Numbered from the stretch's first letter, positions 2,584-56,980 are shown. The stretch: DNA of 64,000 nt from Psammoneis japonica (GCA_008632985.1 QPGO01000175.1:62001-126000), one strand, 5' to 3'. Notes: generated by a model not told the origin, from the sequence alone. Translations and numbers: made by a program.

Positions 2584-2789
2584 GGTAGTGTAGCAGTGTT
2601 ATGCTGTGAAGCAGAGACGCAAAAAGCTTCTGGTGATCATTGTTGGATCGGCGCAACACGCCACGATATCGAAGCACGACGAACGAAAAAGATCTGTCTG
2701 TACGTCAGCATAACGCACACGTACGGTACGATTCCACCGACTTGTTCAAATCCTTTTAGCCTTCGCCATCCACCGTCGCTGTAGGGCCC

Positions 2790-3640
2790 TACACCCACCA
2801 CAGCATCCAAGTCATCCAAGCCATGCCTCCTTCTCTTGAATGGCATCTCCTGGACCTTGTTTTTTCCTCCAACCTCCTGCCATGATCAATCCAGCCCCTC
2901 TTGGCTGCCAGCTGAGGATGCTTCTCCTCCTTGCTGCCGACAAGGCTGCTTCCTTTGCAAAGAGGACCTTTTCCACCCTGCAGCTCAACTTGCCAATGAA
3001 CAAACTCAAAGTGTGCTCTTGTGCTTTTGCTGATGTTCCACCCCAGCTATCACCCACCTTCTCTCTGCTGAGGACATTTGCTGCAACTTCTCATGCTTTC
3101 AAGGCCCATCAAATCTCTTCCACTGGGCCTCACCTTTTGCCAAGAACACCCCCGTTGGTCACTCCCTCTGCTTCCTTTCACCCCCCCCCCCCCCCCCCAA
3201 TCACTGCCCAGCTCATCGCTTGCCTCCCTTGGCAGCATTGGCTGTCAGAACACCTCTGCAACATCTGTCCCATCCTTCTTTGTCTCACGCACTCACTCTG
3301 TCAGCGGGTTGGCCAAGCATGGTGGTGTGTGCCCCAAGCTGGCAACCAACACTTTCTCCTCCCACCCAGGTGCTCTGCTTTACTCACCTCTTGGTTCACC
3401 CCCCACCCCTCCCTCCACCTCTGCTCCACCCTCTCTGCAATGTTGCTCCCTTGTTCCTTTTCCAGCTTGCTGGCACTCCTGCTTTTGCACAAATCTGTTC
3501 CCGCTGCTGCAGCTGACCAAACCCACTTCAAGGTCTGCCCAGCACATCTGTTTCCATCACAACAAGTGTGATGTTCCATCTTTCCTTTATGGCCATCCAA
3601 ATCTTCAGCACGCCCCACTTTCCCATGTTGCTGGCATTGT
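2790..3640 (+). mobile_element. Degenerate fragment of a CRE-like non-LTR retrotransposon (post-RT region)
   Basis: CT-rich and TA/CG-depleted. Translated remnants QLANEQTQSVLLCFC and GSIGCQNTSATSVPSFFVS match LHDKQTQARLL and the GGLG-like segment of the more complete copies at 19-22.4 kb and 43-45.4 kb. Confidence 0.6.
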
Positions 3641-6130
3641 TTCAGTGTCCACGACAATCAGCCAACTGACAAAGCACAAGTTCTTGCAGACACACTCGTT
3701 GTTTCTTTGAGCTCCAGCAATTTTGTTGGAAAAGGTTGAAGCCCACTGCATGGCACCATGCAAGCAAAGAATTCACACAAAAACAATGCTTTGATGCCAG
3801 TTGCAAAGCACATCAACAAAAGCAGGGGGGCAGCCAAGAGGGTTCTTGTTGGCAGCAGCATGGAGCAGTGCCACACCAAATTCCAAACTCTTCAAGTTCT
3901 TGTTGCTCTGTTTGATGCAGCAGCAGTGCAACACCTGTTGCCTGATGCACGCGGCATTGGGCATGAAAATGCACATCCATGAGCAATGTGGAATGTGGAG
4001 AAGATGATGATGGAGCTTGTTTGGTGGCAGATGTTTCTGCATCTGTGCAGCTGCCATTGGATGACCTTGGTGGCAGTTTCTGCATTTTGCGTGGCTGCCA
4101 TAAAGTGCACACAGGAACTGGCAAACAATTTTGAAAGCACCAAATTCCTGCAAAAGTTTTGCACACCAACCCACAGTGCTTTTTTCACAAAACAACATGC
4201 AAAAATGACATTGATTGAGAAATTTGGCAATGGTCATGACTCATCAAACAAAATCTCTGAGAAAGCTTTTTCTTTTGCACTCAACCTCATTGCAACTCAT
4301 TGTCTCACACAATGTCACACTTGTTGTTTTCCAAGCCTGAAGCCATGATTGCCAAGGATGGCTCATCCTTCTTCTCTGCAACAGATGGCTTGCTTTTGTT
4401 TGTCACTCCACAACTGATTGCACTTGAAGGCACATTGTCTCCAGGTGGCACAGGTGTTGCCAGTCATGTCCAGAGGCCCGTGACACACCAAACTGAAAGT
4501 GGTCTGATGGAGAGTCACACAATGTCATGCCCAAACCGGTTTCTGGTTCCAGTGGATGTCACAATTGCTCAACGCCAATCTAGAGCTGCTTCTGATGTTG
4601 GCATCACAATTGAGTTCTTGTCAATTGCACCAACCCATTTCAAGGTGGTTGACACTCAAGTGGTGGAAAGCCCTCACTTGTGTCCCAACCACATTCACCT
4701 GAAGCTGCAATCGTCTCCTTGTTTTCTTGCTCCAAGCCAACTTGCACTTTAGCACCAAGCTGTCACAGAACACTCTGGGGCTGGCCAGAGCAGCAGAAAC
4801 CTGGTCCACTTCACTGCCCTTTGCAACACATGCATCATCCCAGCACCAGCTCATGCCTCATGTGCCACCATGATGGAAAAAGAAGCAGTGCACAAACCAG
4901 CTGTGATGGGACTTGAAGCCACCTTGTTTCTGACTCACACCTGCTGGCAGCGACAAAAGCAAAGCTGGCCATGCAGCACATCACATGGTTGAACGCCTCT
5001 TGGTCAATGTTCAAAAGAGAACAGCCCTGGTGCTGCCAGAATGATTGCAGCTGTGCACTGCAAAAGTGAAAGCAGCAAGTCTTCAACAAGGCACACTTGC
5101 GCATGCTGACTTGGCAAAGGTGACTGCCTTGTGACAGGCTTTGTGCAGCAATCTGATGCTCATGGTCCTGCAAGAAGAACTTGCATGTTGTCACAGAACC
5201 AACAAAACTGCCCAAGAAACCCTCATGCAATGAAAAAGTTGCTGTTCCCTGGCAGACGCCTTGCATTTGTTGTTCAGCTGTGCAGCATCTGAGCTCTTGT
5301 GGCTTTTGAATTGGGGCAGCAAGTCTCATGGTGGCTTTCCCTGGTGCACATTGGGCAGTGCAACAGTTGGCATGAGGTGTTTGTCGATGGCTTTGAGGAG
5401 CCCAAAACTTAGATGAAAACACACTGCAAGCCACTGGACTGATGCAGTGTGGCTGGTGTGCAAAGGACAACAGCAAAGTTGGAGAAAGCTGCACAAGGAC
5501 ACAACCTTGCACAGAGTTTGAGCTCCTTTTTCCCACTTGCAGTGCAAGAGGATGCAAAAGCAGGTCAGAAATTGATGATGCACTTGGGTGAGACTCAATC
5601 AATCTTTGTTCAAACTGTCCTCAAATGGACACGGCAATGTAATGCCTCACCTCTGTGGAGCACCATCTTGTTGGCATCTCCTCTCTATTTTGCAGCAACT
5701 TGTTCTTGGGTGCTGACCTTCAAAACCTTGAATGCCCCCCTCATTTTGAGCAATGTGGATGCCCAGCAGCTAAAAGCTTGCACCTTGCTGACTGCCCTTG
5801 CACTTGGTTGATGTGGCACAGATTGCTTTTGCATTAAGAAGTTGCAGATTTTGAAAATCCAGAAAATCCTCAGACACCATCATGTGGGAAGCTGCTTTTG
5901 CACTTTGACCACAACATTGACAACCATGAGGTCAATGTTCCACAAGGTGACACTTCTCCTTCATTGCCACTGAAACTGCAGCAGCAAACAGGTTCAAACC
6001 AAAAAAGGCCCCAGACAAGGTCGTCTCATCATCCCGTTTGAGCAGCAGGCCAAGACACTGTGTTGGGTTTTCAATGCGTTCAAAGCTGCTTCCTTGCAAA
6101 TGACGCAAGATGTGAAGCTCTCAATCAGAC
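3640..6130. mobile_element. Unidentified degenerate repeat/TE DNA (TA- and CG-depleted island 1, distal part)
   Basis: Only ~8 TA seen by eye in 2.5 kb. ORFs are short, Cys/His-rich and Tyr-poor. No recognisable family motif. Confidence 0.45.
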
Positions 6131-6444
6131 TTTAACTTGCTCAACCCCCAAGACCCAAAACGGCAACGCACAAGCCGTGGCTACATACAGTCGCTTAAAA
6201 AAAAAGATCTACTTTTAGAGCCGGCGCCGGCTAACCCGCACTTCCAGCACACTACAGAGTGCAGCAGAAGTGCCACCAGCAGGAAGGCCTTCAAAAGACA
6301 TATGGCACCAACAAAGCATGGCATTCGTTTCGGTCCATATGCAACTCGTACTCCGATTGACTCGGCTATACCCTTCAGAAAGTGGCCAAGACACAGTGCC
6401 AGACTCAATGCAAGACACTGAAAATAGCTTTTAAACAGACTTTC

Positions 6445-11564: not shown

Positions 11565-14500
11565 TCAATCGATAACAATTGGATCATCCGCTGAACTTCC
11601 GATGTCAAATAGGCTTTTCAGATCGCCGATTCTCGCCTGCCGAACTTCTGCCGGGTCGAGCTTTTCCATTGCTCCTTTCCCCATGGTGGCTTTCGCTTCT
11701 TGGATTCGAACCATTTTCTCCTCTATAGTTCCTGACATGATGAACCTCAAAATACGTACGTTTCGGCGTTGACCAATTCTGTGACATCGATCAAATGCTT
11801 GGTGTTCGACAGCTTGACCGTACAAGACAGCGGCAGCATATGTCAGAATTTTTTCACATATTACGATCATGTACCTCCGATCCACTTACCCATATTCCAC
11901 CAAGTATCCATCAAAAAAAGATGCGAGCCACGCGTCAGATTTATTCCCGTTCCTGCGGCATGAAGAGAACACAGCATAAACCTAGGTCCACTGTCCTCCG
12001 AGCTGAACGATTTCATTGACTCAATCCTATCAGTTGCGTTCTTACTTCCGTCGATGCGGGTAAAGGTGTGTCCGTGTGAATGCAACCATGGCTCGATGAT
12101 ATCCAGGAACTTGGTGAACTGGCTAAATATTACGCCTTTCTCGTCGTCTTTCATTTCTTTTATAGCTTCCAACAGGGCGCGGATTTTGGGTGACGCCTCG
12201 ATCTGGTCAGAATCGGAGTCTACTAATGCAGAAACTCGAGCAGGTGGCAACATCAAGGCAGCCTTTTTCAATTCACTTTTCTTCACCATGTCCCTATCAA
12301 CAAAAGCCGTTCGGCAGAGGGGACACGACGCGTTGTTGCCTAACATCCGGAATTTTGCCAGGCAGGGTGCACAAAAGACATGGGAGCAAGTTTTAAGAAC
12401 TATCGCCTCGCTTTCCTCCATTTCAGACAAGCACATCGCACATTCGGGGATGTCATCTTCCCCGCTTTGTTCTTGAGACAAAGCATTTCCCTTGAGCTTC
12501 TCCAGCAATTCCTTTCCTTCCCCCGCAGAGAGAGCGTTGTCGCCGCTCTTTCCAATCTCATTCAGAACCTTTTCATGAAAGGGGGCGACATCATTTTGCG
12601 AGAAACAGGAGTAAATATAGGAGATTCAATTTATCAGACAAGCACCAAAGGTGTTTCACAATCTTACCGCATCGGCCCGCCGTCTTCGCTCCTCCGGAAC
12701 CAGTGTACCACTGCAGCAGGCTTGGCGTATCCGCAACAAAGTTTCAAGGACGGAAACATAGTTTTTTAGAAGTGCTGCGTCTCCGCCCTCTCTAATAGTC
12801 GCCTGAAACACCGCCCGTGATGTCAAAAAAAGGGAGTCGTGCACTTTCTTATGAAAACTGTCTGGAGGGAAGTATACCTTACATATCCGTATTTCTTTTG
12901 GTGGTAGCTTCAACTCGTTGATACCAGACTTGTTTCGACGCAATGCAATGTGCGCCATCATTGCACGGAGCCTCGCAAAACCGGTATTGTCGCCTAGCTC
13001 AATTGGTTGAGAAATCGCGCGACGAAACACATCCCGGTCACCAAAGGGTTCAACACCCAAAAAGGCAAATAGCGAATTAACTGGCGAGAAAGAAATCCAT
13101 TGATAAGGTCACTAGGGCTAGGGAATGATATGTAGCCATGATAGACAAGGCTCACTTACTGTCGTCAGGTTTGTTTTGGAGTGGCGTCCCTGTCAGACAC
13201 CAACGATGGTCTGATTGGAGAGCTTTGCATGCTTTGAACATTCGGGTGTTCATGTTCCGGATCAGATGCGCTTCATCTAGTATCAACTGGCGAGAAAGAA
13301 ATCAATTGATAAGGTCACTATGGAATGATATGTAGCCATGATAGACAAGGCTCACTTACTCGATGGAAATGAAAGTGAAACAGCGAATCTTCGACTAGAA
13401 GCGCGTCATACTTTCGTTTCGTCCCATTTGTGTTGCTCCGTTTCTTTTTCTCGTCAGGGAAGACTTTGGTGAAATCAGCCGCCAATGTATTGTACGACAC
13501 AATAAGAACATCGATCTCATTCGATTGCACTTGGGCTCGGACAGAGTCGCGATTGGTACCTGTGGGAGAGTGACAAGAGGAGAGTGATTGAGGCGACACA
13601 TCGAGAAAGACAGCAAGCCAAAAAGTAACCATCAGCATACTACGATCGAGAGCAAAACCTACCGTGATAAATGGCATATTTCAGGACATTGCTCTGGACG
13701 TGGGCGTCGATCTGGTGGACCCAGTTGCTCATTACCGACACGGGCGACACAATAAGGGTGCACACAGGCGCCGATGCTTCGTGACGTGGTTGAACGGCAA
13801 CTTGCGGATACGTCATGAGTGGATTCACGCCTTGTTGTGGGTGGAAGGCATATTGCGAATGATGCATAACTGGGATCACGCCTTGCTGTGGGTGGTATGC
13901 CATGCTGTTTTCGTTAGATACTAGCTGCATTTCTGGTTGACTATTCTCGTTACGAGGCGGCAGCGAACCCATCGCAACAGCTGCAGGCTTGGAGTCCAAA
14001 CTTTGACATTCCAGGTTGTTCTGACCCGGTGAATAAATTCGACCTCGAGGAGGATTCGCCAAGATTAAGCTAATGGCTTGTACTGTATGAAAAAGAAACA
14101 GCGCAAGCTCAGAAATCAAGTACAGAAATGAGCAGCAACGCAATCAGTATTGAAAATTTCTTGACTTACTTGTTTTGCCTAAACCCATGTCGTCTTTAGC
14201 AGAAAATGTGGAACGGATGAAACGTGAGAAATACGAGTTCTCCGGAAACAAACTTTCGACAAGCAAGACACCGAGAAATTGAGCCTCACCTGCTAATATC
14301 CCACCCTTTACTTGTCTTGGTTCATGAAACTGGGAGCAATGGGTGACTTCGCATAACCAAACCTCTTGACCGTGTTCCATAACTTTTTGGTAAAATGGGA
14401 CGGCAATATTACCAGTTTCTCTATGAACCATCCATTTAATTCCAGCAATTTGGTGGTCAAACAGCCGCACCTGGTACAACTGGGTAGGCATCTCAATGTC

Positions 14501-17469: not shown

Positions 17470-18903
17470 TCACTTGAAAAAGTGATGTCGGATATCAGTC
17501 TTTGGTTTCAGTAGGTTGTTGTTTATCGCTAATGGTTTGACCACCTTTGTCTTTTTTCGCGAGAAGTTCTTGTTATTCTCATGATCCCTCTCGTTGTATG
17601 CGCGGCCCCTTTTCTTGGAAAGGACGAGTGACAAGAAAGGCTTGTGCGATGCAATATCACGAGCTGCATTTACCTTTCGTGAGTTCTTTTTTTCGGCGGC
17701 CCGGGACATGCGATCCGAATGCGCCGACCTTTTGCCTGTATATGACGGTGGAGCAGGCTCAGGAACCCCCTCTTCCTGCCTGCTTGTTGTTGATGCTGCT
17801 TCTTGAGCGTCGCTGACTTGTCGCAAAATGGAACTCATCTGCTTCTTCGACTTTGGCTTTTCTCGAGAGGATAGTTGTTCCTCCATATCAAACTTATCCC
17901 GCACTACCGGTAGGTTCTGCGGCGACCTTTCTCGTTTTTTCTTGTGAAAAACGACTTGCTTCAGTCTCGAGACTTGATCCTTAAGCTCTTTATTCTCCAT
18001 GACAAGTTTTGGATTCTCTTCCAAGAGACGCTTAACTTCTGACATGTTTCGAGCATTCGACCGTTCCAACTCCTCTCGATGACTTGACTGAATGTCGTCA
18101 AGCTCTCTACGTGTTTGGTCCAGCTCACGTTCTGTGTTAAGAAGCAAATCATTCGCTACCTGAAGTTCACGTTTTGTTGCTGCCATCTCGACGCGAAGGT
18201 CGTTGCGTTCCAAGACCCACTTAGACTTGTCTCCCTCCAGCTTCTTCGCTTGGTCTCGTTGCTCTTCGAGTTCCTCTTTGAAAGACTCGTGTTTCTCTAG
18301 AATTTTCCGGTGATTATCTAGCAGTTGCTTCTGCTTGGACTGAAGTTGCTTGAACCGTCTCTTGTATCGCTTGGACTTGCGACGGTACTTGTTTTCGTCG
18401 TCCTGCTCTGCCTCCTTTCTTCTTTTCCGTACTTTTGTCGGTGAATCCTTCTCCAGAGCCTCCACATCATCCTTGAAATCTTCTGGTGAAGTTTGAGGAG
18501 TCGGTTCGTCGTCATCCAATATCTCAATGATATCCTGCTCAGGATTTTCTTCGCTTTTGTCGTTACCTGTACGCTCCTCAGCTGAAGAATCAATGTTGTC
18601 CGAGACGGCCGCTGAAACGAGATCTTCTTCTTCTTCGTCGCCCATGTCACTCTCTTCGTCACTACTCGAATCTTCGTCGTCTTCTGGCACCGCAGATAGA
18701 TCAATAAAGAGCTTTACGAAACATTTAGATGGCTCGTTACACATGGGGCATTTTGCGTTTCGTCCCCCAGAAGTGTTGTGAGCTTCCCACTGTCGAAAAC
18801 AGTCATGATGAAGACAGTGACCGCAAGGGACAATAGCGCCAATTCCACCGCCTTGACCCTCCGTCAAGGACTCCATACAGATACAGCAGGTTGAATCAGA
18901 CAT
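17470..18903 (-). CDS. N-terminal RING E3 ligase with long coiled coil (TRAIP-like architecture)
   Basis: RING CCIC...CGHCLHHDC...W...CPMC followed by KLFIDL, an acidic region, a coiled coil and a basic C-terminus ending TDIRHHFFK (PIP-box-like). Confidence 0.75.
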   Translation of the reverse strand: MSDSTCCICMESLTEGQGGGIGAIVPCGHCLHHDCFRQWEAHNTSGGRNAKCPMCNEPSKCFVKLFIDLSAVPEDDEDSSSDEESDMGDEEEEDLVSAAVSDNIDSSAEERTGNDKSEENPEQDIIEILDDDEPTPQTSPEDFKDDVEALEKDSPTKVRKRRKEAEQDDENKYRRKSKRYKRRFKQLQSKQKQLLDNHRKILEKHESFKEELEEQRDQAKKLEGDKSKWVLERNDLRVEMAATKRELQVANDLLLNTERELDQTRRELDDIQSSHREELERSNARNMSEVKRLLEENPKLVMENKELKDQVSRLKQVVFHKKKRERSPQNLPVVRDKFDMEEQLSSREKPKSKKQMSSILRQVSDAQEAASTTSRQEEGVPEPAPPSYTGKRSAHSDRMSRAAEKKNSRKVNAARDIASHKPFLSLVLSKKRGRAYNERDHENNKNFSRKKTKVVKPLAINNNLLKPKTDIRHHFFK

Positions 18904-18999
18904 GATGAAATGAGACTTATGGAATCATTAATGCAAAGCCGGTGCACCAGCGGCATCAACAGAAAATGAGAAATGCGCAGCGCCCAAAATTTGAACTCC

Positions 19000-21900
19000 C
19001 TCGCGATGATGACGTCGGCATCGCTCTGTCCTTTTTTCACATCATGCACCCTGCTTCTCATTTTGCTAATTGCTGGCCCTCCGGCACCTTCCCTGATTGT
19101 CTTGACCCTTCTTCCTTGCCAACCCCCATTGTTGCCAAACCCTGGACTCAGCACTGTGCACCTTTGTCATCCCCGGCAACCTGCTGCAATTCCTCCTTCA
19201 AAGAAAATGCCGGCAGCACCCTTGCTGGTTTCACCCCTTCACTCTGTGGCTCCTCCCGCTGCAAGTGTGAAAATTTTCTTTCTCGCCTTCACACCTTTCT
19301 TGTTGGGAAAATCTCTGGCATCTGGCATCACCTTCAAACCCATCCTTCAGCCTCCTGGGACTGCTCACCCCCACCTGCTGTCTCTCAACCTTGCTGGCAA
19401 CAGGCACACCGTGCCTTGCCCCTCTCCACGTGCTCTGCATCTCTTCATCATCTGATGCCATGTGGGGTGCCCTTCTCTTTGCACTGTCAACCCTCTTTCT
19501 GCTCCTCCTAAATCCTTCCAACTCTTTGAGGCTCTGTTGCTTGTTGCTGCTGTTCTGCCAACCCATGCCAAGTCTGGCCTTCCCCCATTCTTGCCCCCCC
19601 CCCCCCCCTGCTGCCTCTCCCCTCTCCCACCTTCACCCCACGGCTGCGCCAACCCAACTTTTGTGATGAAGCCTTCTCTGCTTCAGACAGCTCTGTTGCT
19701 CACCCTCCACACCCTTTTTTGCCTGGGCCTGTTGCTGTTCTTCTCAAGGAGGAGAATGTGCTGATGAAGACAGCCCCTGTGCTCAGCCTGCTCCTCCGCC
19801 AATCTGACCTCGGCTCTCCCAGCAGCTGCCGTCATGCCTGGCTGAGTGCCTTCCCAAAGTTCTCAAGCTGAGACCTCCTCAATTTCATCCTCCCATCATC
19901 TCTTCAGCTTCCTGTGTCACCAGCTCCTTGTCTTGCTGAAATGATGACCCTTCCCATCTCTCACTCTCCTGCTGATGCCACAGGTGTCTTTGCTGGTTCT
20001 GCCAATCTCTGCCTGCCTTCTTTTTGGTCTCTTGTCCTCTTGCTTGTTTTCAGTGGCTCTGCAACCCTGCCATCCATCCTCTCCTGGCCTTTGACTGCTT
20101 TTTGTCACTCATCACTCTGTTGTGCGCAAGGAACCTGCTGAGACCTTGACAAGCTCCATCCTGTTGGCACTGGCATGGCCCTCAAGCTGATTGCTGCTGG
20201 TGCTCTGTTGTCATGGCCCTCCTTTTCAGCTCTGAGCTCACCAAGTGTCTTCTCCCTGATGTGGACAACTTGGCACTGGTGGAATCAAGCTGAGATTCAG
20301 TGGCACCTCTGCTTGGCCTCTCCTGCACAGGCTCTCCCCTTTTTCTGACCTTGTCAACATGTTTGTCAGAGCATTGCACAATGCTTGCCATCATCTTCTT
20401 GCCTCCATTGCTGCCTTCTGCTTGCTCCCTCCATTCATTGACATGGTCATTCACCTGAACTTCAACAAATGCTGGTGCTGCAGCCCTGGCTCCTCTTGGA
20501 GCATTCCTTCACCCAGTGTGAAGGATGCCCAAGGCTGTCCCCTTGGTCCCATCCTCCTTCACTCCATGAATTGCAAACTTCTCCATCACCTCCCACCCCA
20601 CTCTCCTGCCTCCATTGGCCCCTGCATCAATGACACACATTCATCTGTCCTCTGGTTCCTCTGTCCTCTGGTTCCTCTGGCACTTTGAAGCTCTTGGTGC
20701 TGTCCCATGGTGCACCAAGCTCAATCTCCACAAAACTCAGCTCCCACCCTGCAACCCTGCCAAGCTTGCTGCTTCCAACGCACCACCTTCCTTGGCCAGT
20801 CTGATGGCTCTTGCAAGCCTTTGCCACTCTTTCCTCTCTGACATGTCCTCCACTCTCTCCTCCAAAGTTGAGAAGCTCCCCACCTGCCTTCATGACAAAC
20901 AAACTCAAGCCCGCCTTTTGGACATTGTTCCATCTCTTCTTCTGGTGCCCACCTCCTCCTTGTTGCTCTCTGACTTTTGACTTTTGCCACAACTTTGATC
21001 TCAGCAACCCTCCCAACCCCCTTTCATTGGACCTCCTGTTTTCAAGATGCCCTCCTTGTCATCATCCATTGCTCCCTTCCCCTTGTCACCTGCTGTGCAT
21101 TCCCTTGCCATTGCTTTTTTCCCACAAGCCTCCCTTGGTGGCTTGGCTCTTTGACCCTCCTGCCATTTCCATCTCTTCCTTCCTGCTTGTGGCCCTTCTT
21201 CTGTTTCACCATCTCTGCTGCCCACAAAGCTCAGCCATCACCTGGCAATTCCATTGCTCACCCCTGGTGCCTCAAGGTCTCCCTTTCCTCTTGGAACACT
21301 CCCCACTCACATCTCTGCCTTTGTGGCAACTTTTGCTGCTTTGCCTGCACCCTGGACCCTGACTCTGCATCCTCCACCACTTCCCTGTCCTCGCTGCCTC
21401 TGGTCTGGGATCCAGCCTGCACCCACACCATCTCTGTTGTGCTCATCACAGGTGCATTGCTGCTTCCACCCTTGCTGGTGCTCCCCCTCTGATGTCCAAT
21501 CTTCTTTTTCCTCCCATCTGCTGCACCACCCTTCCTTCTGCTTTGTTCACTCTTGCTTCCTGCCCCTGTGGTTGTGCCATCCTGGATGCCTGCAGGGATC
21601 ACTTCTTCTTGCAGAAATGTTGCAGCCACATGCCCAAGCTCTGTCCAGCAGCCTTTGCAACACCATCTTTGTCATTTCTCAAATCTTGGGGCCTCTTGTT
21701 GCCAAGCTGTGTCACTCACCAGCTGATGTCCATCTCAAGCTCCATGTGAATCGTTTGTCCTCTCCCATCCCCTCCTTTGCTCAGCTGATGTCAGCATTTC
21801 CATTCATCCTTCTGCCTCTCTCTTTGCCTCTTCTTGTTGCTGTCACACTGCTGGGCTGTTGACAGGTCACTGCACCAGCCAAAGCTCCTTCTTGCCTGCC

Positions 21901-22435
21901 TCCCAGTCTGCCTGCCCCCTCCACTCCTGCACTGACTGAGGCACACACTGCTTGAGCTTGAGATTGAAGTTTTCTCCTTTTGCTGGTGGTTCTCTTGCCA
22001 TTGTGAACCCCTCAACAATGACAGGATCTTCTTCTTTTCTTTTGCTGTTGATTGCTTGGGTGGTCTTGGCTTCTTCTTTCACCACTTTTTCTTTGGTTCC
22101 TTGGCTCCTGCTGCTTGCTCTCAACCCAAGCCTCCCTGGCACCATCTCTCCACCCTCCACAACTTCAGTGCCTCCTGCTTTGCTTTCCTCCATGCCCTCA
22201 CAGTTTTCCTGTGCCTGTGCCCCTTCTTCCTTCTGCTGACTTAGCCTGATGCTGGAACCAACTTGCCAGCAAACACTTCAGCAGCATGCGCCATGCAATC
22301 CTCTTCTCCTTCTCAACAGGCTGCCCAAACATTGAGCTGCAACATTTCACATCTCATCCTCTCTCTGCTCATGCCTTTTGGCTCTTTTCTGCCCTTTGCA
22401 CAGACTCCTCCCCCACTCCATCTGCCAAATGCCAC
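19000..22435 (+). mobile_element. Degenerate CRE-like (RLE-type) non-LTR retrotransposon, copy 1
   Basis: Ordered remnants: KLHPVGTG (RPIG, ~20150), DLVNMF (~20347), QGCPLGP (20530-20550), CIND for YIDD (20623-20634), KLNLHKT, Zn knuckle CPCGCAILDACRDHFF (~21560), HPLLCSADV for RPADV (~21765), and an FAVD..GGLG RLE end (~22040). Confidence 0.85.
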
Positions 22436-22440
22436 TGTGT

Positions 22441-23240
22441 AACCTGGAAACCAGCACTTCAAAGTTCTGCCACATGTGCCCGCTTCTTGCCAACACCTGT
22501 GCGGCAAGACAACAACTCTGTCTCTGTGCACAGCAAGAAGGCAAGAGCAGGGTGAGTGGAGTGAGCTTAAAAAACAGCATGACATGCAATTGCAAGAGGC
22601 AAGAGCACACCACATGCCTTGCTCTGCAATGACAAAGCTGGCAGCAGCAAGCAGAGCACCCATGGCCACTGCAACGAGTGCCAAGGTCAAAAGAGAAACA
22701 CGGCCAACATTTGGTCCACTTTGCCGCCGTCTGAGTTGATTGTCAGAGCACTTGCAAGCAAATCAAGAACAGAGCTGAGGTCAAAATCAGAGTGCTGCTC
22801 CATGGCGCAGCAAGAGTCACAAAAAATCAAAGCACAAGATTTTGCTGCTGCAGAGCAATTGACAAGAGGCCGTCTCCCCTTGTTCCAACATTTTTGAGAG
22901 ACTGAGTGCCATGTCTGCCCAGCCCCTGCAGGCAGCCTTGCATTGCTGCTGTGCTTTTTAAAATGTCCTCCTCGGTGACTCCAGCCCCAAACCACAGTCA
23001 GTGCATTGTCCCATGCTTTGAAAATCCCAGACTGTTGCACAACCTGGAAACCAGTGTGTCAAAGTTCCATCACACTCTCATCCGCTTCTTGTCCACACAG
23101 TCATGGTGAGGAAATGACAATTCTGTCTCTGTGTGTGGGAAGGCAAGAGCGAGGTGAGTGGATGAAGTGCAAAAAGAAAAAAGCGCAACATGGTGCACGA
23201 TCATGACGGAACACACACACCTCACTCTGCAACAAAGCCG
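22441..23240 (+). repeat. Diverged ~200-bp direct repeat with 600-bp period (22441-22640 and 23041-23240)
   Basis: Both start AACCTGGAAACCAG...TCAAAGTTC...CCGCTTCTTG and share GAAGGCAAGAGC..GGTGAGTGGA. Confidence 0.75.
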
Positions 23241-24899
23241 AACGTGCGGAAATGTGAAGTGATCAGTCACTTTGCTGGCATATATCGTGGGAAAGAATGC
23301 CGACAGATGCGACGTTGGCACGCCGACACCAATGACTTTTGGTGGAAGGCACACTCGCTGCATGCAGTGGGTGTTTAGCCTTCATCCAAATGCAAAAAGT
23401 CCTTTTTGTGCATTGCATTCAGCCAATTCGATGAAATGGTGCCAAAATGACGCACGACAAACAAAGGCACGTATGTTATGGCACGCAATAGCCACGGAAC
23501 GCCTCGTATCTCGTTGCGCTAAATCATTCTATCTAAGTTAAGGTACACTTCTAAAAAATGGACATGTTTCTCTCACTCTACTAGAGAGTATTTTAAACTA
23601 TGCGAGGGGATAGCTAGGCCCGACTGTAGAGTTGATTGCTGCATACCGCGTTTACCACCCACCCACCCGTCAACATCATTGCTTGAATGATTTTTTGGAT
23701 GCTTGTTTTGATTCATGATCTTTTTTACCAAGATAGATCGAGAGTTTTTTCTTTGTTCGGCAGGTGTCAGTACGAATTCACGAGCCGGCAGAAACACCAC
23801 AACAAAAACAATAGCACGACTCTCTCCTTTTTATTGGCAGGATCCAGTGCGCATAAGCGAGCCGGACACATACCAAACAAGTCAAGAGTGCTAACACAAA
23901 TCCAATGTGAATCCATACGTCGTATAATGAGTCAAAAACATCTACAGAAAAAGAGTGTCGTCAGATAGATGATCATTCGCAACCCTTGATCGTGGTGTCA
24001 GTCTCGCATCTGCTTGACTCATTCGCAGATGAGCCACTTACCATCAATAGACAATACAGGCACGCAAGAAATTGTCAATGTTATTGTTGGTATGATTTTT
24101 GGGGAGCTTCTTTTGATTCAAAAGGGACTGTAGGGCACACCGCAGCGCCATTATGGTACGATGAAGAAATCCGATTGCAGCAGAATGGGGCAGATGTAGT
24201 CAGGAAACTATCAGCTATCATTTGTCCTTGGGGTGCTACCTGGCTCAGAAACCTCTGTATATGAGTGATAAAGACGACCATACCAAAGAAAATGAGTGAC
24301 ATAATACATAATGAAACAAAAGCGCAATACTGTACGATTCGATCGCGACAGACAGAGAGAAAATGAGTATCGAATCGTGGTGCAATTACAAAATCCATGT
24401 TTTCATCTTACAATTGGCTGATTACCTTCAAACAAGCAACATAAGTTGATTCTATATGATAGTAAAGACTAGTAAATAGCGTTGATATTGTTGAAAGGAT
24501 TGGCAACAGTCTATTAAACGCCGCTCCGATTCTCATGGTGGGTGTTGTTTGAGGAAATTTGTGCAGACGTGACTGAATGAGTCCCGTCTGACTTCGCGTG
24601 ATGGCCTTGGGGTTTTCATGCGGCTCAGTACCTTTTTCGCGCGAATTTTCGCGTGATTTTACACTCCCCATCGTTCGTGAATCACTTGGTACACATTGGC
24701 ACGCCTTGGCACGCTTGTCCACGAACCACTAAGTACTAAAATACACCCTGGCTACGCAGTGTCCCGTTTGTCCACAGGTGTCCAAAAAAATTCAAAGCAA
24801 AACGATGGAGAGTATAGCTCGAGGACCGAACCGGACCTCGCCTACTAGTAGGGCCCTACCTACCGGCGTACGGTACCGTACCGTACAAGTACCTACCCG

Positions 24900-25210
24900 C
24901 ACGACGACGACCCCTCCAGTTGCTGTTGCTGCGGAGCTTATTGTTGTTGCTGTTTCTTTCTCTCTACTCTAGAGATCGGTACTCTACCCGACAAAACTGC
25001 AAAGTGTGAGATGAAAGGAATACATTAGACGTGCATTTTGGTTGAAGCCTCGAGATGGATCATCGCTCAATCAAACAGCCAAGGTCAGAGGCGGCCACGA
25101 CAGTTGGTGAGCAGGTATTTTCCAACTTCCAACGTGCTTGAATGTGCTTACACATCGCCTCACTTTCTCTTTCATCCTAAAAATATCTGTTGCTTCAGTC
25201 TATCGAACCG
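24900..25210 (+). repeat. ~300-bp direct repeat, copy A (copy B at ~26910-27275); looks like 5'UTR plus an intron
   Basis: Shared TAGAGAT(A)CGGTACTCTACCC...GATGGATCATCGCTCAATCAAAC...CAGTTGGT(G/A)AGCAGGTATTTTCCAACTTCCAACG...CGCCTCACTTTCTCTT. Confidence 0.85.
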
Positions 25211-26909: not shown

Positions 26910-27275
26910 TCAACGACGACTCCCTCCAAGTTGAGTGCGAGTTGCTGTTGCTGGTAGTTGGAGCGGAGGTCGTTGCTACTCTTGCTGCGTTGCTTGGTTG
27001 TTGGTGCTGTTTCTGGCTAGAGATACGGTACTCTACCCTACAACAACTGTGAAGTGTGAGTTGAAAGGAACACAATAAACGAGTATTTTGTGTGAAGCCT
27101 CACGATGGATCATCGCTCAATCAAACGGCCATGGTCAGCCACGACAGTTGGTAAGCAGGTATTTTCCAACTTCCAACGTTGTTGAATGTTCTTCGTCAAA
27201 AGGAATGTCAAAGATCTGTACACGTCGCCTCACTTTCTCTTACATCCTTAATATCTGTCGCTTCAATCTATAGAA
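26910..27275 (+). repeat. ~300-bp direct repeat, copy B
   Basis: See copy A. No downstream ORF follows this copy. Confidence 0.85.
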
Positions 27276-42988: not shown

Positions 42989-43159
42989 TGGCTTTTTAAA
43001 AAAGACGAAGTGATTCCAGCACTTCATTAGGTACATTTGTTTATTACTACCCTCGTTTATACTAAATAAGGAGCTAAAGAGCCTACTAGAGTAGACAGAA
43101 ATACCGGCATGTAGGACTGCAGAAGGAGGCGTCAAAGAAGCTGCTACTAGGTAGAGCGG

Positions 43160-45410
43160 AGGGCGCTTTGTAGAGGGATGAAGGAAAGTGTCCTTGCAAA
43201 GGGTAGAGAGGAAGCAAAGAGCATGAGAGGAGAGGTGGCGTGCAATGTTGGAACTGAGAGTCTGAGTCACCCACTGAGAAGGGGAGGAGGAGTGGTGCGT
43301 GCTGCACCAAAGCGATTGCTGGCAAGTTTGATCAAGGCAAAGTCAACAGAGGGAAGCTGAGAGGGGGGAGAAGCAAGAAGTGAGCCCATGGAGCAAGGCA
43401 GAATAGGAAGCATCAGAGTCTTGCAAGGTGGGTGGCAATGGCCAAGGAGGCTTGGGCTGAGAGCAAGAAGCAGCAGAAAGCAAAGAGCCAAAGAACAAGT
43501 GGCAAAAGAAAAAGCCGAGACCACCAAAGTGATCATCAACAGCAAATGGGAGAGGGAAGATCCTGTCATTGATGAGGAGATTCAACACCAAGAAAGCCAT
43601 CAGCAGAGGAGGCAGAGGTGCCAAGAAACTTTGATCTTGGCTCAAATGGTGTGCCTCAGTCAACGCTGGAACCGAAATGGCCGGCAGACCAGGATGAGGG
43701 TGTGAGAAGAACAAGGAGGTTTGGGTGAGTTGGCATCAACAGTTGTGTGGTGCAGCAGTCATGGTGGCAGCAGGAGCATGTGGAGAGGGACGTGGGAGGA
43801 GGGGCAGAGATGCCAACATCAGCAAGGTGGAGAAGAAGAGGATGGGAGGTCAGAAGGGTTGCAGGTTCAAGGTGTGAACATTGTTGGGAAAACGACACAC
43901 AGCTGACCACCAGGGGCCCCAGGGTCTGTGAAATGATGAAGGTGGTGCCTTGCAGAGGCCGCTGGAGAGCTTGAGCTTGCAACTGCATTGGAATGAGAAG
44001 GTGTGATTAGCGACCACCACAGGCATCAAGGGTGGTGCATCCACGGTCCACAGGGCAGGGAGAGCAAGCCAACATGACATGGATGATGAAGGATGCAGAG
44101 GCACAGCTTGTGCTGAGCAGCAGTGGGCTGGTGCAGGTGCCAGAGGCAAGGCAAGAGGGCTGAAAAAGCACAAGAAAAGGAGTGAAGGGGGTGGCTTGCA
44201 TGAGGGAAAGAAGGGAAGACAGAGAGACTGGAGTGTCAGATGGAGAGTCAGCAGAGGCAGGTGCGGTGGTGTGCTGTTCATCACCATGGCAGAGATGGCA
44301 GGCTAGACCAGCAGGAAGAGCTGATGACGTGACAAGAGCATCCAAGGAGGGAGAGAGTTGGATTGAAGGGTGGGGGCACAGCAATGGAAGAGGGCCCACA
44401 AGTGGAGATTGGAGCAAGGGTCACTCCAAGAGGAGAGAGAGAGAGAGCTTGAAGCAGTGGGAGAGGCTGGACATGTTGACAGAGTCAACAGGCTTCATTG
44501 GCTGAGCTCCACATGAGTGGCAAAGGGAGGCAGGCAGAAAGGCAATGGCAAGGGAGCAGGGGAGGTCAGCATGGCTGGTGGGAGGATGCAGAACACAGCA
44601 GAAAAAGTGGCGGGTGATGGCAAGATGGGCTTCTTGGAAGGGAGGAGATGTCCAGCACTGGGAGGGCTCCTGCTGAGGGTTGTGAGGATCAGAGTTGTGG
44701 TGGAAGTCAACACAATGAGGTGAGCTGAGAGCAGGGAACAAAGAGCAGCACTTGACAAGCTGAGCCAGTGTTTGTTTGTTGTGAGGACAAGCAAGGAGCC
44801 TCTCCACCTCAGAAGAGAGGGTGGAGGATGTGGCAGAAAGCAGGGCATTGGCAAGGGCTTGAGTGCCCCAGCAGAGGCTGGCCAAGAAAGTGGACACTGG
44901 AAGCAAGCTTGGGGCCACAGGACAGGTCATTGACAGGGTTGAGATGTGAAAAGGCAGTGCAAAGGGGGGCTGCTTGGGAAGGGGTTGGGGAGCAAGAATG
45001 GGGCTGGCACCACTGATCAAGACAAGGAGCTCTGGGTTTTGGGAAGGTTGAGCTTGGTGCCGCAGGGGGGGAGCACAAGAGCTCAAAAACACTGAGCAAA
45101 CCAAGGCACAGAAGAGCAAATGAGGAGGAGGCATGTGCAACATCAATGTGAGAGCCAACAGAAGATCAGGAGAGTGAGGTGGGAGACATGGAAGGAGCTC
45201 TTGTGGCTTGCAAAGTGGCTGGAGGCCAGGTGGCAGAGCCAGACCACAGGTGAACAAGATGTGGGTGGGGCGGAGAGGGCACCCTTGAGCAAGCCCTCCA
45301 TGCATGCTGCACAAAGGAGCTCCAAGATGAGTTGGAGTGGCAACGCCAGCACTCATTGGAGTTTTGACAAGTGGCATAAAGAAAGGAAGAGCAGGGTGGA
45401 AGGCAGGCTT
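43160..45410 (-). mobile_element. Degenerate CRE-like non-LTR retrotransposon, copy 2 (5'-truncated, inverted relative to copy 1)
   Basis: GLAQGCPLRP (~45290), HIDV for YIDD (45139-45150), SSTLSSEVERL..HNKQT, Zn-knuckle remnant (~44030), HPLLLHLADVGI (RPADV) and LPFAVDDHFGGLG. Colinear similarity to 20500-22435. Confidence 0.85.
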
Positions 45411-46260
45411 TGAGGTATGAGGTCATGATGGGTGCTGTGCAAAACCAACCACAGCCAATTGACCCACATGCATGACTCAACACAACACCGTGGGAAAAGA
45501 AAGGTGACTGTTTTCAATTCCAAACTCAACATTTTTGCCAAAACAAATCATTTGACACCAGTCAGGTTTTGAAGATTGATTTGAGGTTCTCACCCAGAAA
45601 ACTTTTTTGTGGCAACAAGCTCCATGAGACAAGAGAAAAGATTGAGATGCCAATGACTCCTGCCTTTGAGTGTGTGTTTGGGCATGTTTTGCTCTGCCAC
45701 TGTGCTCTTTACACCTCATTCCATCTGACTTGTTGTGTTCTGTTTTTCCCATTGAATTGGCAGAATGCTGGGGGGGGGGCTGCTGAACTCATGCCCCACC
45801 AAAGATGGCAACAGCTTCCAACTCAGTGTTGCCAAGAATGGCTCACATCATTTCTCAGGTTGTCTGCAATGAAACAAGTCATGATCAAGTGTGGTGGTGC
45901 CAAAGACAATCATGCTCTTGGCTGGCAACTTTTGGCTGGCAACTTTTGGCTTCCTGCATGCAGATGAAGGTGCAATTGAACAAGATCCCCACATGAATTG
46001 TGACATCAAGTGATGGCAAAGCATTTGTGAAATTGCACTGCAAAGCAGCATGGCAAGGTGCGCTTCCCACACTCGAGATGGACTTGCCAATGCAGAAGGG
46101 TGGAATGAAGCTTGACAACTGTGGGCCCAACAGTTTTCTGTTTGAAGAGCCACTTGTGATTGAATGTCCATTCCGACAATGCATTGGGATTGGTTGAAAA
46201 TTCTCAATTTCCTGGCTTTTTTTTTTTCACTCTTGCTTTGCTTCCCAGACTGTGCGCCTG
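45410..46260. mobile_element. Unidentified degenerate TA/CG-depleted DNA adjoining CRE copy 2
   Basis: Same dinucleotide signature. No family motif recognised. Confidence 0.4.
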
Positions 46261-46635
46261 CTGTGAATGCCTGTTACAAAATACAAGAAAAATTATTTCG
46301 GTGGCGTAGCATTGTCTAACAGCAGTCGTAGCTTCTAACAGACTTGTGGAAACTGTGTAAAAAGATGTTGCACCGACACTTGTTGAACTAGAGCCTCCGA
46401 AACTTTCAATGCTGCGGAAGCCTATCAGAACTATAGTAGACAACGTTGCACAGGTGATAGTTTGCAGGCTCGGCTATCTGATGTTCAATATTATGATAAC
46501 GCCATATTCAATTCACACCAGCCATTTTCTCCCCGAAACCATTGACATCTTTACTTTTCACGGCTTCTTCACAGTTTTCTGTTTCACTATAATCAATCTC
46601 AGATAAGGTATCAGCATCACTAACGGCATCACACA

Positions 46636-47740: not shown

Positions 47741-48706
47741 ATGAAGAAAACAGTTTTTCGTCAAATTGTGGCGATCTTTGCCTTGAGCTTCATTCTGTCT
47801 CTTTCCGCCGATGCCTTCACAAATCCTTTACTCGGATCACGGTCTAGCGTGAAGAATCCTTCCCATTTTACCGTAGGTGAAACTCATAGCAACGAGCTGG
47901 TCCCAAACGAAAATGCCGTTTCACTAAAAACACAGCTTTTGGAAAAAGTAAAGACGTTTCGAGAAATTCAATTACGAGATGGGGACGTTGCTATCGACTT
48001 CGGTGTGAAAGGGGGGGAGCTGAACGAAACATCTCGAGCGCCACAAAAGGTAGACTATTACTCGATTTCGCGAGACTTGGGAGAAGCCGCTGACGGCATT
48101 ATTAAAATATGCGATGAGCTATCTGCGGAAAGCCCAACTGATGTTCCAACGAAATATCTGGGGGATAAGGAAAATGGAAGCCGAGCGCCGTTGAACGGTA
48201 CATGGAGACTCCTTTTCACCACAGCTGCGGATGCTTCTTTCAGCAGCAAAAATTCAACACGAGGGACAGCTGTTGTTTCAAATGATGTAGATGCTGCACG
48301 TGGAAGGCTAACAAATATCATTCAATTTAATCCGCAGCCCGACGGCTCCAAACCGGTTGTGGATTCGCTCAATGTTGTTCTGGAGGGCAAAGCGACCAGC
48401 GACAAGCGCGTGTCGCTCCGTTTTCGATATGTGAAAGTGCTACTCAACAAGTTCTTTTTCTTTCCATTATTTGGAAAGCGACTGAGACTCTACATTCCAG
48501 TCCCGGGTCCATTCATCACAAGGCTAATCGTTTTCTTTTCGAGGATATTGAAGTTTGGGAGAAAGAAAGGAATCAAGAAGCCCCCACAGGCATATTTTGA
48601 TCTTTTGTACCTCGACAAAGACTTGCGAGTTCAGCGAACGGGAGAAGACAATACTTTTGTGCAAGTAAAGGAAACCTGGGATGCGGCAAGGCCGTTTTTG
48701 TCTTGA
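47741..48706 (+). CDS. Plastid lipid-associated protein / fibrillin family
   Basis: Signal peptide ending SADA-FT, LNGTWRLLFTT, and YFDLLYLDKDLRVQRTGEDNTFV. Confidence 0.85.
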   Translation: MKKTVFRQIVAIFALSFILSLSADAFTNPLLGSRSSVKNPSHFTVGETHSNELVPNENAVSLKTQLLEKVKTFREIQLRDGDVAIDFGVKGGELNETSRAPQKVDYYSISRDLGEAADGIIKICDELSAESPTDVPTKYLGDKENGSRAPLNGTWRLLFTTAADASFSSKNSTRGTAVVSNDVDAARGRLTNIIQFNPQPDGSKPVVDSLNVVLEGKATSDKRVSLRFRYVKVLLNKFFFFPLFGKRLRLYIPVPGPFITRLIVFFSRILKFGRKKGIKKPPQAYFDLLYLDKDLRVQRTGEDNTFVQVKETWDAARPFLS

Positions 48707-54099: not shown

Positions 54100-56980
54100 A
54101 TTGTCACACCCCTGTGGTAGGGGAGAATGTGGTGATGTCATGGTTGCGTGGCAGTTTTGTGTCTTGTGCATTGTGCGTTTTTACACAAGTGTCCTCACAC
54201 TGATTTGTGCACTTGCACAAACACCAATGGCAACGGGAAAAATCCTGAACCAGGCATCACAAGTGGGTTTTGCCTCTTTCTTGCTTTGCTGCAGAGTCTG
54301 CCGGACAACGTGCTTGAGCTGACTGCACACATTTTCTTGGCTCTCTGCATTTGGGCTTTGTGCTTTGCGGCTGTTTCCTCATTTTGGGTGGAAGGGGGTG
54401 GTGTGCCCAGGGCAGGTTGGGCCCAACCCCAACCAGCATTCTTCTGCCAACAATTGTTGCAACACATCTCCAACATCTCGAGCAAAGAAACAACAATCTT
54501 GCCACGCCTGACCAAATTTTCAAACTGGGTTGGGACACATCTGTTGTGTGCTCTTTGGGTCATGGCTCAGCTGTTTCATTGGATCTCTTGTGGACTCATG
54601 TCATGCTTTGATGACATGCTCTTGGCCACAGCATTCCTCAACACAATGCATTCCTTTCGGACTCACAAACTGCATGATGAATCCTTGTTGTTGGATCCAA
54701 TTTTTTGACAAAAACCAAGCTCAGTGAGAGTGGCGATGATTCTTGTTGCGACATCCTGCTAAGACCACAACGACCCACATGAATGAGTCCGATTTTCTCT
54801 CTTTGCATTTGCAAGGCTTGTCATGATCAGTGCAGCTTTTCATGAAATCACCATGCCAGGTGCAGAGCTGGGTAAAAAGCTCCATGTTGCTCCCATTTCG
54901 AATCAAGAGCATGGTGTTTGTGGAGTTGTTTTGTGTGGCATCTGGCTCCTGATGCTGTGCAGCATTTTGGTTTCTTAAAATTTCATTTGGTGCACAAGGA
55001 TGCTGGCATGAGGGGTGTTCAGTTGCACACACTGGGGTTGGGATGATGTTTGTTCAAGTGCACTGAGAAGAGCAATTGACCATCACCAGAAAAGTGAGTT
55101 GATTGTCGAGTGTGGTGGCTGATGCATGCATCACACAAAGACGATGCAAAATTCCAAGAAGAGAGCTGGAATGTTGTTTGCTGAGAATGACCCATCTTCA
55201 GCCAAAGCCTTTTTGAATGCACTGGACAAAGGTTGCCACCAGATGTTGGAGACAATGAAGCACGGGCAAATGTGCTGTCAACCAGAGGCAGCAGAGATGA
55301 AAAGTTCAAAGATGACAAGGTTTTTTGCATGGATTGTGTGGCTGCCATCCGATCTGGCAATGAGAGAGGCACAAAATTTGCCAAACTGTCTTGGTGCATT
55401 GAAGGAGGGTGCGCCGACCAACTTTGGGATGTCTGACATTGATTTGCTCTGCATTTCATGTGAACTTCAGGTTTGACATGTTTCGACAAACGTCGCCACT
55501 GTGCAGCATTCTGCAGTGGCAACAACCACAAATGGAGTGTCTTGAAAGCAGCTCAACAGCCTCTCAACAGTGCACAGAGAAACAGTGCAGAAATGCACAA
55601 CAGTGAGAGCAGTGTTTGCAAGATGGCAAAACATCTTTGTTGCATGGCAAAGCACGGTCGTAGACTCTGTGACAAATTTGCACCAAAAAATTGAACACCC
55701 CCCCCCTCCCCAAATGAGCCATGAACACCTCCCATTTTTAAGAGGGTGTGGTTGATGGAGAATTTGCACCCGCATCTGTCGCAGCACTCGAGGAGGTTGG
55801 GGGGAGTGCTGCCATGTTGCGGGCGAAGCACACAAAGGAACTCTTTGCCACTCAGCATTGATGGGTGCACTGACAGCCATGCTCCAGCACTGGTGCTGCA
55901 CTTGACAGCTCTCCTGGCCTTGAGGTTGGGTGGAGTCCAGAGGATTGTCTTGAGTTTCTCCTTGTGCATCTTGGCTTTCCTGCTGGCCACTTCTTTTTTC
56001 ACTTTGCATGTGGCATGTCCTTTTGTGGACTGCTGGAGCAAAATCTGAGTGGCCACAAAGCAAGTCTGTCATGTGGGAGCATGCAAGAGCACCACCAGTG
56101 TCACAGTTTTGGGATGCAGGTCCGTTGGATGAGGGGCGCTGGACAGCCCTTTTTGCAAATTTGATTGGGGGGGCAGACAGGGCTGATCTTGGGCAAGGAG
56201 GGGGGCAGCAGAGCAAGGTGACAGGTGTGTGGCTGCAGTGCAGCAGATGTTGAGTGTTGGCACTCTGGTTGGCTGTTGACAAAATCAGAAAGAAGGGCCC
56301 AACAGGCAAGTGCACGCGCGCACCATGCACGCACGCTGCATGAGCCAGTCTGCGTGGAGGGACCTCATGGCTGAACAGTTTAACCAAAACAATTTTTTGC
56401 TTTTTGCACAAGAAAAAAAGACTTTGACCATGGTGAGCAAATCATTTGCGGCGGCGTCAATGTTGACAATCGAGTGGCAATCGCATCGGGAGAGTCTTTT
56501 TAAACCCTGTTGGAAGCATCTGCTGCTGTGGCGATTGCCGCTTGAATTTTTCCTTTAGATGTTTTTTTTTCCCATCCACTGCTTCTCATGCATGTTTTTG
56601 CTGTTGTTGCCTCCATCCCAATCAAAGGTTGCGAATGCCTCTGTGACCGAAGCACACAAAGGTTGCACGCGCATTCATCGAACGATTCAACAGAAGTGGT
56701 GCTGGTGTGTGGATGGAAGGAGTTGCCTCCGGATGTTCGTGCTTGTTGGTCAAGCACCGCCGTGCTTCATGCTTTTGTGTGGCAAGAACATGCCTACGAC
56801 AAGGGTAATTGTTCGGTTGCGACTACGTCAATGTTTTAATTTGAGAGGCAAGCACACACGGAATGTGCATGCAGCCGCAGCGCAGCACCTGCAGTTAGTG
56901 ACAGCACACAGTCAAAAGCGAGACAGATGCAACCACGGTGTCTGGCCATCAGCAGGAACTATAGCCATAGTGGACACGCA
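54100..56980. mobile_element. TA/CG-depleted TE island 4 (composite)
   Basis: Strong TA depletion and Cys/His-rich junk ORFs. Contains the CRE fragment listed next. Confidence 0.6.
55690..56400 (-). mobile_element. Degenerate CRE-like non-LTR retrotransposon fragment of a different subfamily
   Basis: RRAVKCSTSAGAWLSVHPSMLSGKEFLCVLRPQHG...LECCDRCGCKFSINHTL.KMGG corresponds to the CRE GAWL...EF...LRLRYG...CDGCG...HAL.C..GG region. Confidence 0.8.

Follow-up and report, generated by a model that had tools for sequence, protein, structure and literature searches.

What removed nearly every TpA step from parts of a diatom genome, and what did the damaged DNA encode? We addressed this question in a 64,000-nucleotide (nt) stretch of the Psammoneis japonica assembly (GCA_008632985.1 QPGO01000175.1:62001-126000), here called the window, with positions counted from its first letter. 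An earlier note, made from the sequence alone, had pointed to two inverted copies of one repeat in it, in which the catalytic YxDD box of a reverse TRANSCRIPTASE (RT) seemed to have been destroyed after insertion by TpA loss and CpG decay. The best explanation of the locus as a whole, which we regard as probable, is that the two copies are dead, most likely RT-bearing, and lie in islands hypermutated at specific dinucleotides.

Five islands of the window are nearly free of TpA

Dinucleotide counts revealed five islands, covering 14,950 of 64,000 nt (23%) of the window, in which TpA is nearly absent and CpG is depleted. Across the five, observed/expected ratios are 0.01-0.09 for TpA, 0.14-0.28 for CpG, 1.59-1.96 for TpG and 1.55-1.94 for CpA, compared with 0.59, 0.98, 1.17 and 1.17, respectively, in the remaining 49,050 nt. 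The islands, to which no strand is assigned, are listed with their observed/expected ratios:

2751-6200, no strand: island 1, TA 0.08, CG 0.16, TG 1.92, CA 1.68; unrelated to the other islands
19001-23250, no strand: island 2, TA 0.03, CG 0.15, TG 1.96, CA 1.55
43151-46350, no strand: island 3, TA 0.09, CG 0.14, TG 1.59, CA 1.86
54101-56450, no strand: island 4, TA 0.05, CG 0.28, TG 1.69, CA 1.94
62301-64000, no strand: island 5, TA 0.01, CG 0.28, TG 1.64, CA 1.82

Island sizes range from 1.7 to 4.25 kb. Islands 4 and 5 measure less than 3 kb; the latter is truncated, since it continues past the end of the window, and TpA is sparse from about 61850 on. Homology among islands is limited to islands 2 and 3, the other three having no partner in the window, and a purine/pyrimidine skew is absent from three of the five. 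The earlier note overlooked this reach of the signature, which extends beyond the repeat to five islands, unrelated apart from that one pair.

Island 2 contains copy 1 of the repeat together with about 0.8 kb of another repeat, and includes a TpA-free run of 2733 nt (19509-22242); island 3 contains copy 2 and a further 0.9 kb or so. The name transposon islands would be consistent with the fact that copies 1 and 2 are repeats of one another and that parts of island 2 show increased contig depth. The depth is 2- to 10-fold up across 21880-23175, which indicates further genomic copies of that part. Weighing against the label, Pfam searches recognized no mobile-element protein domain in any of the five islands; in six frames, the four island stretches other than island 2 gave nothing above threshold, only noise. 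A direct repeat (22441-22574 and 23041-23175, 69% identical) also lies in island 2, beyond the homology of copy 1. Another, of about 155 nt, is found outside the islands beside EFTUD2-like gene pieces (24995-25149 and 27045-27193, 85-87% identical, 2.05 kb apart); its TpA and CpG are normal, so the hypermutation spares some repeats of the window.

Most TpA/CpG loss came after the two copies had separated

The repeat is present in two copies of opposite orientation:

19001-22450, + strand: copy 1, about 3.45 kb, delimited by composition and by homology to copy 2 over 20590-22433
43131-45420, - strand: copy 2, inverted, shorter at its 5' side, with a purine-rich + strand

Segment 20590-22433 is homologous to 45185-43162, inverted, with 61.5-70% identity (BLAST, MAFFT), and the MAFFT alignment of both copies gives 62% identity over 1964 aligned columns. 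These are old, dead copies of one repeat. The TpA loss that the earlier note reported in them proved both real and extreme: in copy 1 the observed/expected ratios are 0.02 for TpA, 0.11 for CpG, 1.99 for TpG and 1.60 for CpA, and only 4 TpA occur in all of 19001-22500.

To date the loss we counted discordant sites in the 1918 gap-free dinucleotide columns of the alignment, taking the expectation from single-site mismatch frequencies. There were 33 TG/CA and 29 CA/TG sites (copy 1/copy 2), that is 62 vs. 10.8 expected, with TA-derived and CG-derived sites inseparable in a two-copy alignment without an outgroup. Concordant sites numbered 92 (TG/TG) and 81 (CA/CA). Control double transitions were near expectation or rare (CT/TC 38, CC/TT 27, GT/AC 12, GC/AT 10, AG/GA 1). 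If the two outcomes were equally likely, 62 discordant sites correspond to about 124 TA/CG steps present at the split; the 22 retained ones (TA 6 and CG 13 in copy 2, CG 3 in copy 1) bring the total to about 146. This amounts to about 7.6% of steps, which is close to the 8.9% or so expected in unmutated DNA of like composition and places nearly all depletion after divergence. Most of the TpA/CpG loss thus occurred after the copies had separated, independently in each and on both DNA strands, in agreement with the earlier proposal of a post-insertion, strand-symmetric change of double-stranded DNA.

The same types of change in a public run

As a comparison, the organism's contigs from one public DNA run (run X1) were matched to the window at 80% likeness or more. 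The 100 listed differences, which may lie between haplotypes or between clones, the two being indistinguishable here, comprised 75 transitions and 25 transversions. The 40 best supported of these 100 formed 30 clusters, and 15 of the 30 were TG<->CA doubles (6), TG to TA (3), CG to CA (4), CG to TG (1) or CA to CG (1); the TG to TA clusters are three places with TG in the window and TA in the contigs. Five contigs of the same locus carry 1-5 differences each, and 8 of 11 positions (of 12) were TpA/CpG-type changes, including three TG<->CA doubles and one TGC to TAC. Such double hits in the same dinucleotide, amid about 0.3% of other difference, suggest that TpA/CpG-type steps mutate far faster than the rest. 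Their occurrence in run X1 contigs also suggests that the hypermutation process is recent.

Possible relics of RT motifs

In the RT palm, a QGxxLSP motif is followed by YxDD and then by GLxxNxxKT. Both copies contain three putative relics in this canonical order, QGCPL(G/R)P, x-I-(N/D)-(D/V) and KLNL(H/P)KT. We take QGCPLGP to be a relic of the QGxPLSP-type motif, and KLNLHKT is presumably one of the GLxxNxxKT type. The features concerned are:

20530-20550, + strand: QGCPLGP, CAA GGC TGT CCC CTT GGT CCC, copy 1, from the sequence
20623-20634, + strand: CIND, TGC ATC AAT GAC, putative YxDD box of copy 1, from sequence and alignment
20644-20675, + strand: perfect tandem duplication of a 16-nt unit, from the sequence
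20717-20737, + strand: KLNLHKT, copy 1, from the alignment; the best-conserved stretch between the copies
45287-45267, - strand: QGCPLRP, copy 2, from the sequence
45150-45139, - strand: HIDV, CAC ATT GAT GTT, copy 2, homologous to CIND by alignment; its frame differs from that of QGCPLRP
45035-45055, - strand: KLNLPKT, copy 2, from the alignment, in a third frame

The codons of both boxes are those given in the earlier note. As it stated, CIND comes 31 codons after QGCPLGP (93 nt from Q to C), and the two 12-mers occupy identical MAFFT columns and are homologous. The corresponding distance in copy 2, from the Q of QGCPLRP to the H of HIDV, is 137 nt; this is not a multiple of 3 and exceeds that in copy 1 by 44 nt, which MAFFT places as an extra 42+2 nt between the QG motif and the box. 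In copy 1, the +1 frame change from CIND to KLNLHKT is caused by the duplication at 20644-20675. With one unit removed, both motifs share a frame and are 26 codons apart. A contig of run X1 across 19594-20910 shows 18 gap letters vs. the window. The duplication may be polymorphic.

An intact YxDD box is found in neither copy. Taken together, the copies read [Y or R]-I-D-D, with the second Asp kept by copy 1 and the first by copy 2. The 12-mer holds 2 of the 62 discordant sites, TG vs. CA at bases 1-2 and CA vs. TG at bases 6-7; the latter (ATC-AAT vs. ATT-GAT) agrees with the proposed CpG decay at ATC-GAT. For the first codon, the earlier note had derived TGC and CAC from an ancestral TAC. Both strand-symmetric products are indeed seen, but CGC (Arg), through CpG decay, accounts for TGC/CAC as well as TAC (Tyr) does, and DNA of such composition would, with background dinucleotide frequencies, contain about two CpG steps for each TpA step, which weakens the case for Tyr. 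With frames pooled, copy 1 has 242 TGY, 184 CAY, 0 TAY and 16 CGY codons. An ancestral Tyr is therefore plausible but unproven, and with two copies it is favoured solely by what is expected of an RT motif.

We evaluated the motif order with 3000 dinucleotide-preserving shuffles of copy 1, using the patterns QG..L.P, [YFCH].[DN][DN] and LN..K[TSC], which were picked post hoc, with the data already seen. The ordered triple, present in copy 1, was absent from all 3000 shuffles, the pair of the first and second motifs was present in 3 of them, and QG..L.P alone occurred in 12%.

A series of searches speaks against an RT. Pfam at E<=10 returned 0 families and no RVT_1, whether the copies were translated in six frames or trimmed motif segments were used; no endonuclease was detected, and 18900-22500 is without any Pfam match. 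No RT was found with phmmer when two open frames were compared with PDB sequences. When 1363 open frames from all six frames were scanned, unfiltered, with a local profile made from 22 RTs of group II introns, the motif-bearing ones were not among the matches at E<100. Among 5.8 billion proteins, a word-seeded search picked 302 candidates, 0 of them at E<=10. At the homology ends (22433 and 43162) there is no A-rich tail, and no target duplication was found, though no dedicated search was made. Two scans of metagenomes for relatives were also negative: with the open frame 20570-20980, 355 pattern matches were obtained and 0 confirmed, and a 29-letter DNA pattern with Y/R (pyrimidine/purine) at each TG/CA gave 0 matches.

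The composition of the copies weighs in the same direction. The period-3 signal is weak, and the strand with the motifs consists of 68% pyrimidine (C+T; A 0.15, C 0.36, G 0.17, T 0.31). From the alignment column classes (purine in both copies 0.245, pyrimidine in both 0.617, mixed 0.138), the common ancestor of the copies would have been at least about 60% pyrimidine even with every transversion running from purine to pyrimidine, an odd composition for a coding strand. Pyrimidine content did not correlate with local identity between the copies (Spearman -0.16, p=0.21), giving no sign that the richness arose after the split. Three stretches of the window have 65-70% pyrimidine on one strand: 19001-22500 (+), 43001-45400 (-) and 2701-3700 (+). 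Transitions leave purine/pyrimidine content unchanged, so these stretches cannot have been created by transitions. The pyrimidine-rich region 2651-3750 has no significant similarity to copy 1 or copy 2.

Proposed process and alternative explanations

What the sequence shows is a dinucleotide signature that is restricted to islands, arose after divergence and affects both strands alike, and run X1 differs from the window by the same types of change. We propose that the five intergenic islands underwent an island-confined, dinucleotide-specific hypermutation of double-stranded DNA, in which TpA would become TpG or CpA (A:T to G:C) and CpG would become TpG or CpA (G:C to A:T). An ancestral x-I-D-D box would then have had its first codon changed to TGC in copy 1 and to CAC in copy 2, and its CpG-spanning ATC-GAT to ATC-AAT in copy 1 and ATT-GAT in copy 2. 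For the TpA half, an ADAT/TadA-like enzyme could have deaminated adenine in DNA, a mechanism already proposed in the alga Bigelowiella natans. In the natural tRNA target of ADAT/TadA, A34 follows U33 and is thus in UpA context, so a TpA context fits such an enzyme. The CpG half would be deamination of methylated cytosine in silenced repeats and may be no more than ordinary methylated-cytosine decay.

Did the repeat encode an RT at all? It is possible to explain the data with a repeat that had no RT on this strand, copies 1 and 2 being some other repeat, non-coding or coded on the purine-rich strand. The three relics would then be chance products of a pseudo-translation rich in Pro, Ser, Leu, Cys and His, and TGC/CAC simply one of the 62 discordant pyrimidine-purine (YpR) sites, derived from either CGC or TAC; the hypermutation would be unaffected. 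This explanation, which we consider unlikely, draws on the missing profile and sequence matches, the pyrimidine richness of the strand and of its ancestor, the weak period-3 signal, the frequency of QG..L.P in shuffles and the post hoc choice of patterns. It is opposed by the rarity of the ordered triple and of the pair in the same shuffles, and by the exact retention of QGCPL.P in both copies. Moreover, the motif region is the best conserved between the copies (70% vs. 61.5% identity), the 16-nt duplication accounts for the frame change and its removal restores a single frame, and the purine-rich strand is likewise without a Pfam match. Decay of about 38% between the copies, together with frame shifts, may hide a true RT relic from profiles. 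Judging from these sequence features, the repeat of copies 1 and 2 probably once encoded an RT of the type found in elements without long terminal repeats (non-LTR).

Two other explanations concern the hypermutation itself. TpA/CpG poverty might have been inherited by, or selected in, the inserted DNA, through intrinsic avoidance in DNA of foreign origin or selection against UpA and CpG in RNA. The bias is common to five unrelated islands, and CpG and UpA are under-represented in many RNA viruses and mRNAs, as the abstract of PMC3829696 reports, but the depletion here is far more extreme (0.01-0.09). The 62 TG/CA discordant sites between the copies, where 10.8 are expected, also contradict inheritance, as do run X1 contigs with TA or CG at positions of window TG or CA, and the islands offer no detectable genes as a target of selection; we regard this origin as very improbable. 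Equally improbable in our judgement is an origin before integration, as in edited animal retroelements, with changes introduced into the element RNA by ADAR-like A-to-I editing or into its cDNA. In favour of this, the TpA context equals the 5'-U preference of ADAR given in bioRxiv 10.64898/2026.01.13.699255. Editing of one strand, however, predicts TA to TG alone on the sense strand, with changes shared by descent, whereas both products are about equally frequent (33 vs. 29; TG/TG 92 vs. CA/CA 81) and arose independently in each copy. The same signature is also present in islands without strand skew and without homology, and ADAR is a metazoan family.

Returning to hypermutation of double-stranded DNA, we suggest only tentatively, and with more doubt than confidence, that diatoms run an active, island-targeted DNA-editing defence against mobile or foreign DNA, which would rewrite the two self-complementary YpR steps, at the A of TpA and the C of CpG, to exhaustion. 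If true, this defence would be that of the chlorarachniophyte B. natans, hence old and widespread in the stramenopile-alveolate-rhizarian (SAR) supergroup, and the TG/CA and TG/TA differences between window and run would mean that it is still operating.

Host and neighbouring genes

Outside the islands we scanned 41 long open frames, many of which are ordinary eukaryotic genes, including COQ9, proteasome lid subunits, Nop56/58, EFTUD2, EMG1 and a hybrid histidine kinase. One gene was informative about the host:

47741-48703, + strand: plastid fibrillin (PAP) gene

Its best relatives are at most 66% identical, which indicates a species without a close relative in the searched collection, and all organism-assigned ones are from diatoms. 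The predicted signal peptide ends ...SLSADA|F; we take Phe after the cleavage site to be the diatom plastid-targeting pattern. From the diatom-only relatives of the fibrillin and the ordinary eukaryotic genes it follows that the window is diatom nuclear DNA, in which hypermutated islands are interspersed with normal genes. The repeat insertions are intergenic and flanked by a RING-finger gene and an unnamed gene of 705 amino acids.

Direct repeats were also seen elsewhere in the window. Those at 13076-13160 and 13282-13360 (93-98% identical, 200 nt apart) lie in the region of a split SNF2/HIRAN/RING helicase gene. In segment 59519-59950, imperfect direct repeats, each about 135-140 nt long, give way at about 59783 to tandem 27-30-nt units (TGCTGC...CATCAT...). 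These units fall inside the open frame 59680-60915 (-), which has a weak ArfGap match.

Comparison with known systems

The order and spacing of the QGxPLSP-, YxDD- and GLxxNxxKT-like relics resemble those of non-LTR RTs of the long interspersed element (LINE) type, and the shortening of one copy at its 5' side is also found in such elements. Unlike them, the repeat has no profile match, endonuclease or tail, and no target duplication was noticed in analyses not dedicated to finding one. The CRE clade (CRE1/2, SLACS, CZAR) has a restriction-like endonuclease downstream of the RT and inserts in spliced-leader RNA genes. The earlier note had assigned the repeat to this family. The assignment found no support: the searches detected no endonuclease, the element sits in a diatom, and its copies lie in intergenic DNA with ordinary genes on either side.

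Repeat-induced point mutation (RIP), known from ascomycete fungi, likewise strikes duplex DNA in bursts of transitions limited to repeats and to particular dinucleotides; mobile elements are destroyed, and both strand-symmetric products remain. It differs in that RIP changes C to T, mainly in CpA, making TpA and lowering GC, whereas here TpA is destroyed and CpA/TpG accumulate. Fungal RIP was rejected as the cause: a TpA excess with a CpA/TpG deficit would be expected, and the opposite was seen (TpA 0.01-0.09, CpA/TpG 1.55-1.96). A link to duplication, as in RIP, is also unsupported, since for three of the five islands the window contains no partner. In methylated transposons, CpG decay similarly gives CpG depletion and TpG/CpA excess in silent repeats, but it covers half of the signature and leaves the TpA loss unexplained. 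According to passages of PMC9998398, diatom transposons are methylated via DNMT5a, and many diatoms have DNMT4 enzymes, which are relatives of the RIP enzyme RID and whose function is not known.

Hypermutation of invading DNA that is specific to TpA and runs from A:T to G:C is newly described, in one alga and one preprint. There, 231 of 302 de novo mutations of B. natans fell in two integrated viral regions, and 230 of these 231 were A to G or T to C, all on TpA and yielding TpG or CpA (bioRxiv 10.64898/2026.01.13.699255, Mettrop et al.). The same preprint describes 124 genomic clusters that are TpA-poor and CpA+TpG-rich, finds TpA-poor genes enriched for RT, endonuclease-RT and DDE domains and proposes an ADAT2-like DNA adenine deaminase; CpG is not mentioned in its main text.

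A literature search with poor coverage of subscription journals found no report of TpA-targeted hypermutation in diatoms, and the pattern, which looks like genome defence, has so far been reported from this one unrelated alga alone. The end state seen here, kilobase islands with essentially zero TpA over 23% of a 64-kb window, raises the possibility that TpA hypermutation is widespread among major marine phytoplankton. As such a process can erase mobile elements past recognition by profile searches, it would bias the repeat annotation of such genomes. Its signature offers a simple genome-scan handle on the targets and, via cross-species comparison, on the enzyme. Given the coupled loss of CpG and TpA, one may ask whether both activities are recruited by a single silencing pathway.

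Compared with what is described for B. natans, a chlorarachniophyte, the host here is a diatom (stramenopile), the depletion is near saturation (0.01-0.09 vs. Rho 0.45 in the giant-virus region), CpG is also lost, and the targets are 2-4 kb intergenic islands; the process is deduced here from sequence comparison. The likenesses lie in the changes and their distribution. TpA is converted to TpG or CpA on both strands in B. natans and probably here as well. In both algae the affected DNA forms kilobase clusters next to normal DNA, and all five islands of the window are TpA-poor, CpA+TpG-rich clusters of the B. natans type. As is probably the case here, the affected DNA described there includes RT domains, along with many sequences too degraded for annotation. 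The TpA half of the signature therefore appears to match that process of B. natans, which would place it in two unrelated lineages of algae.

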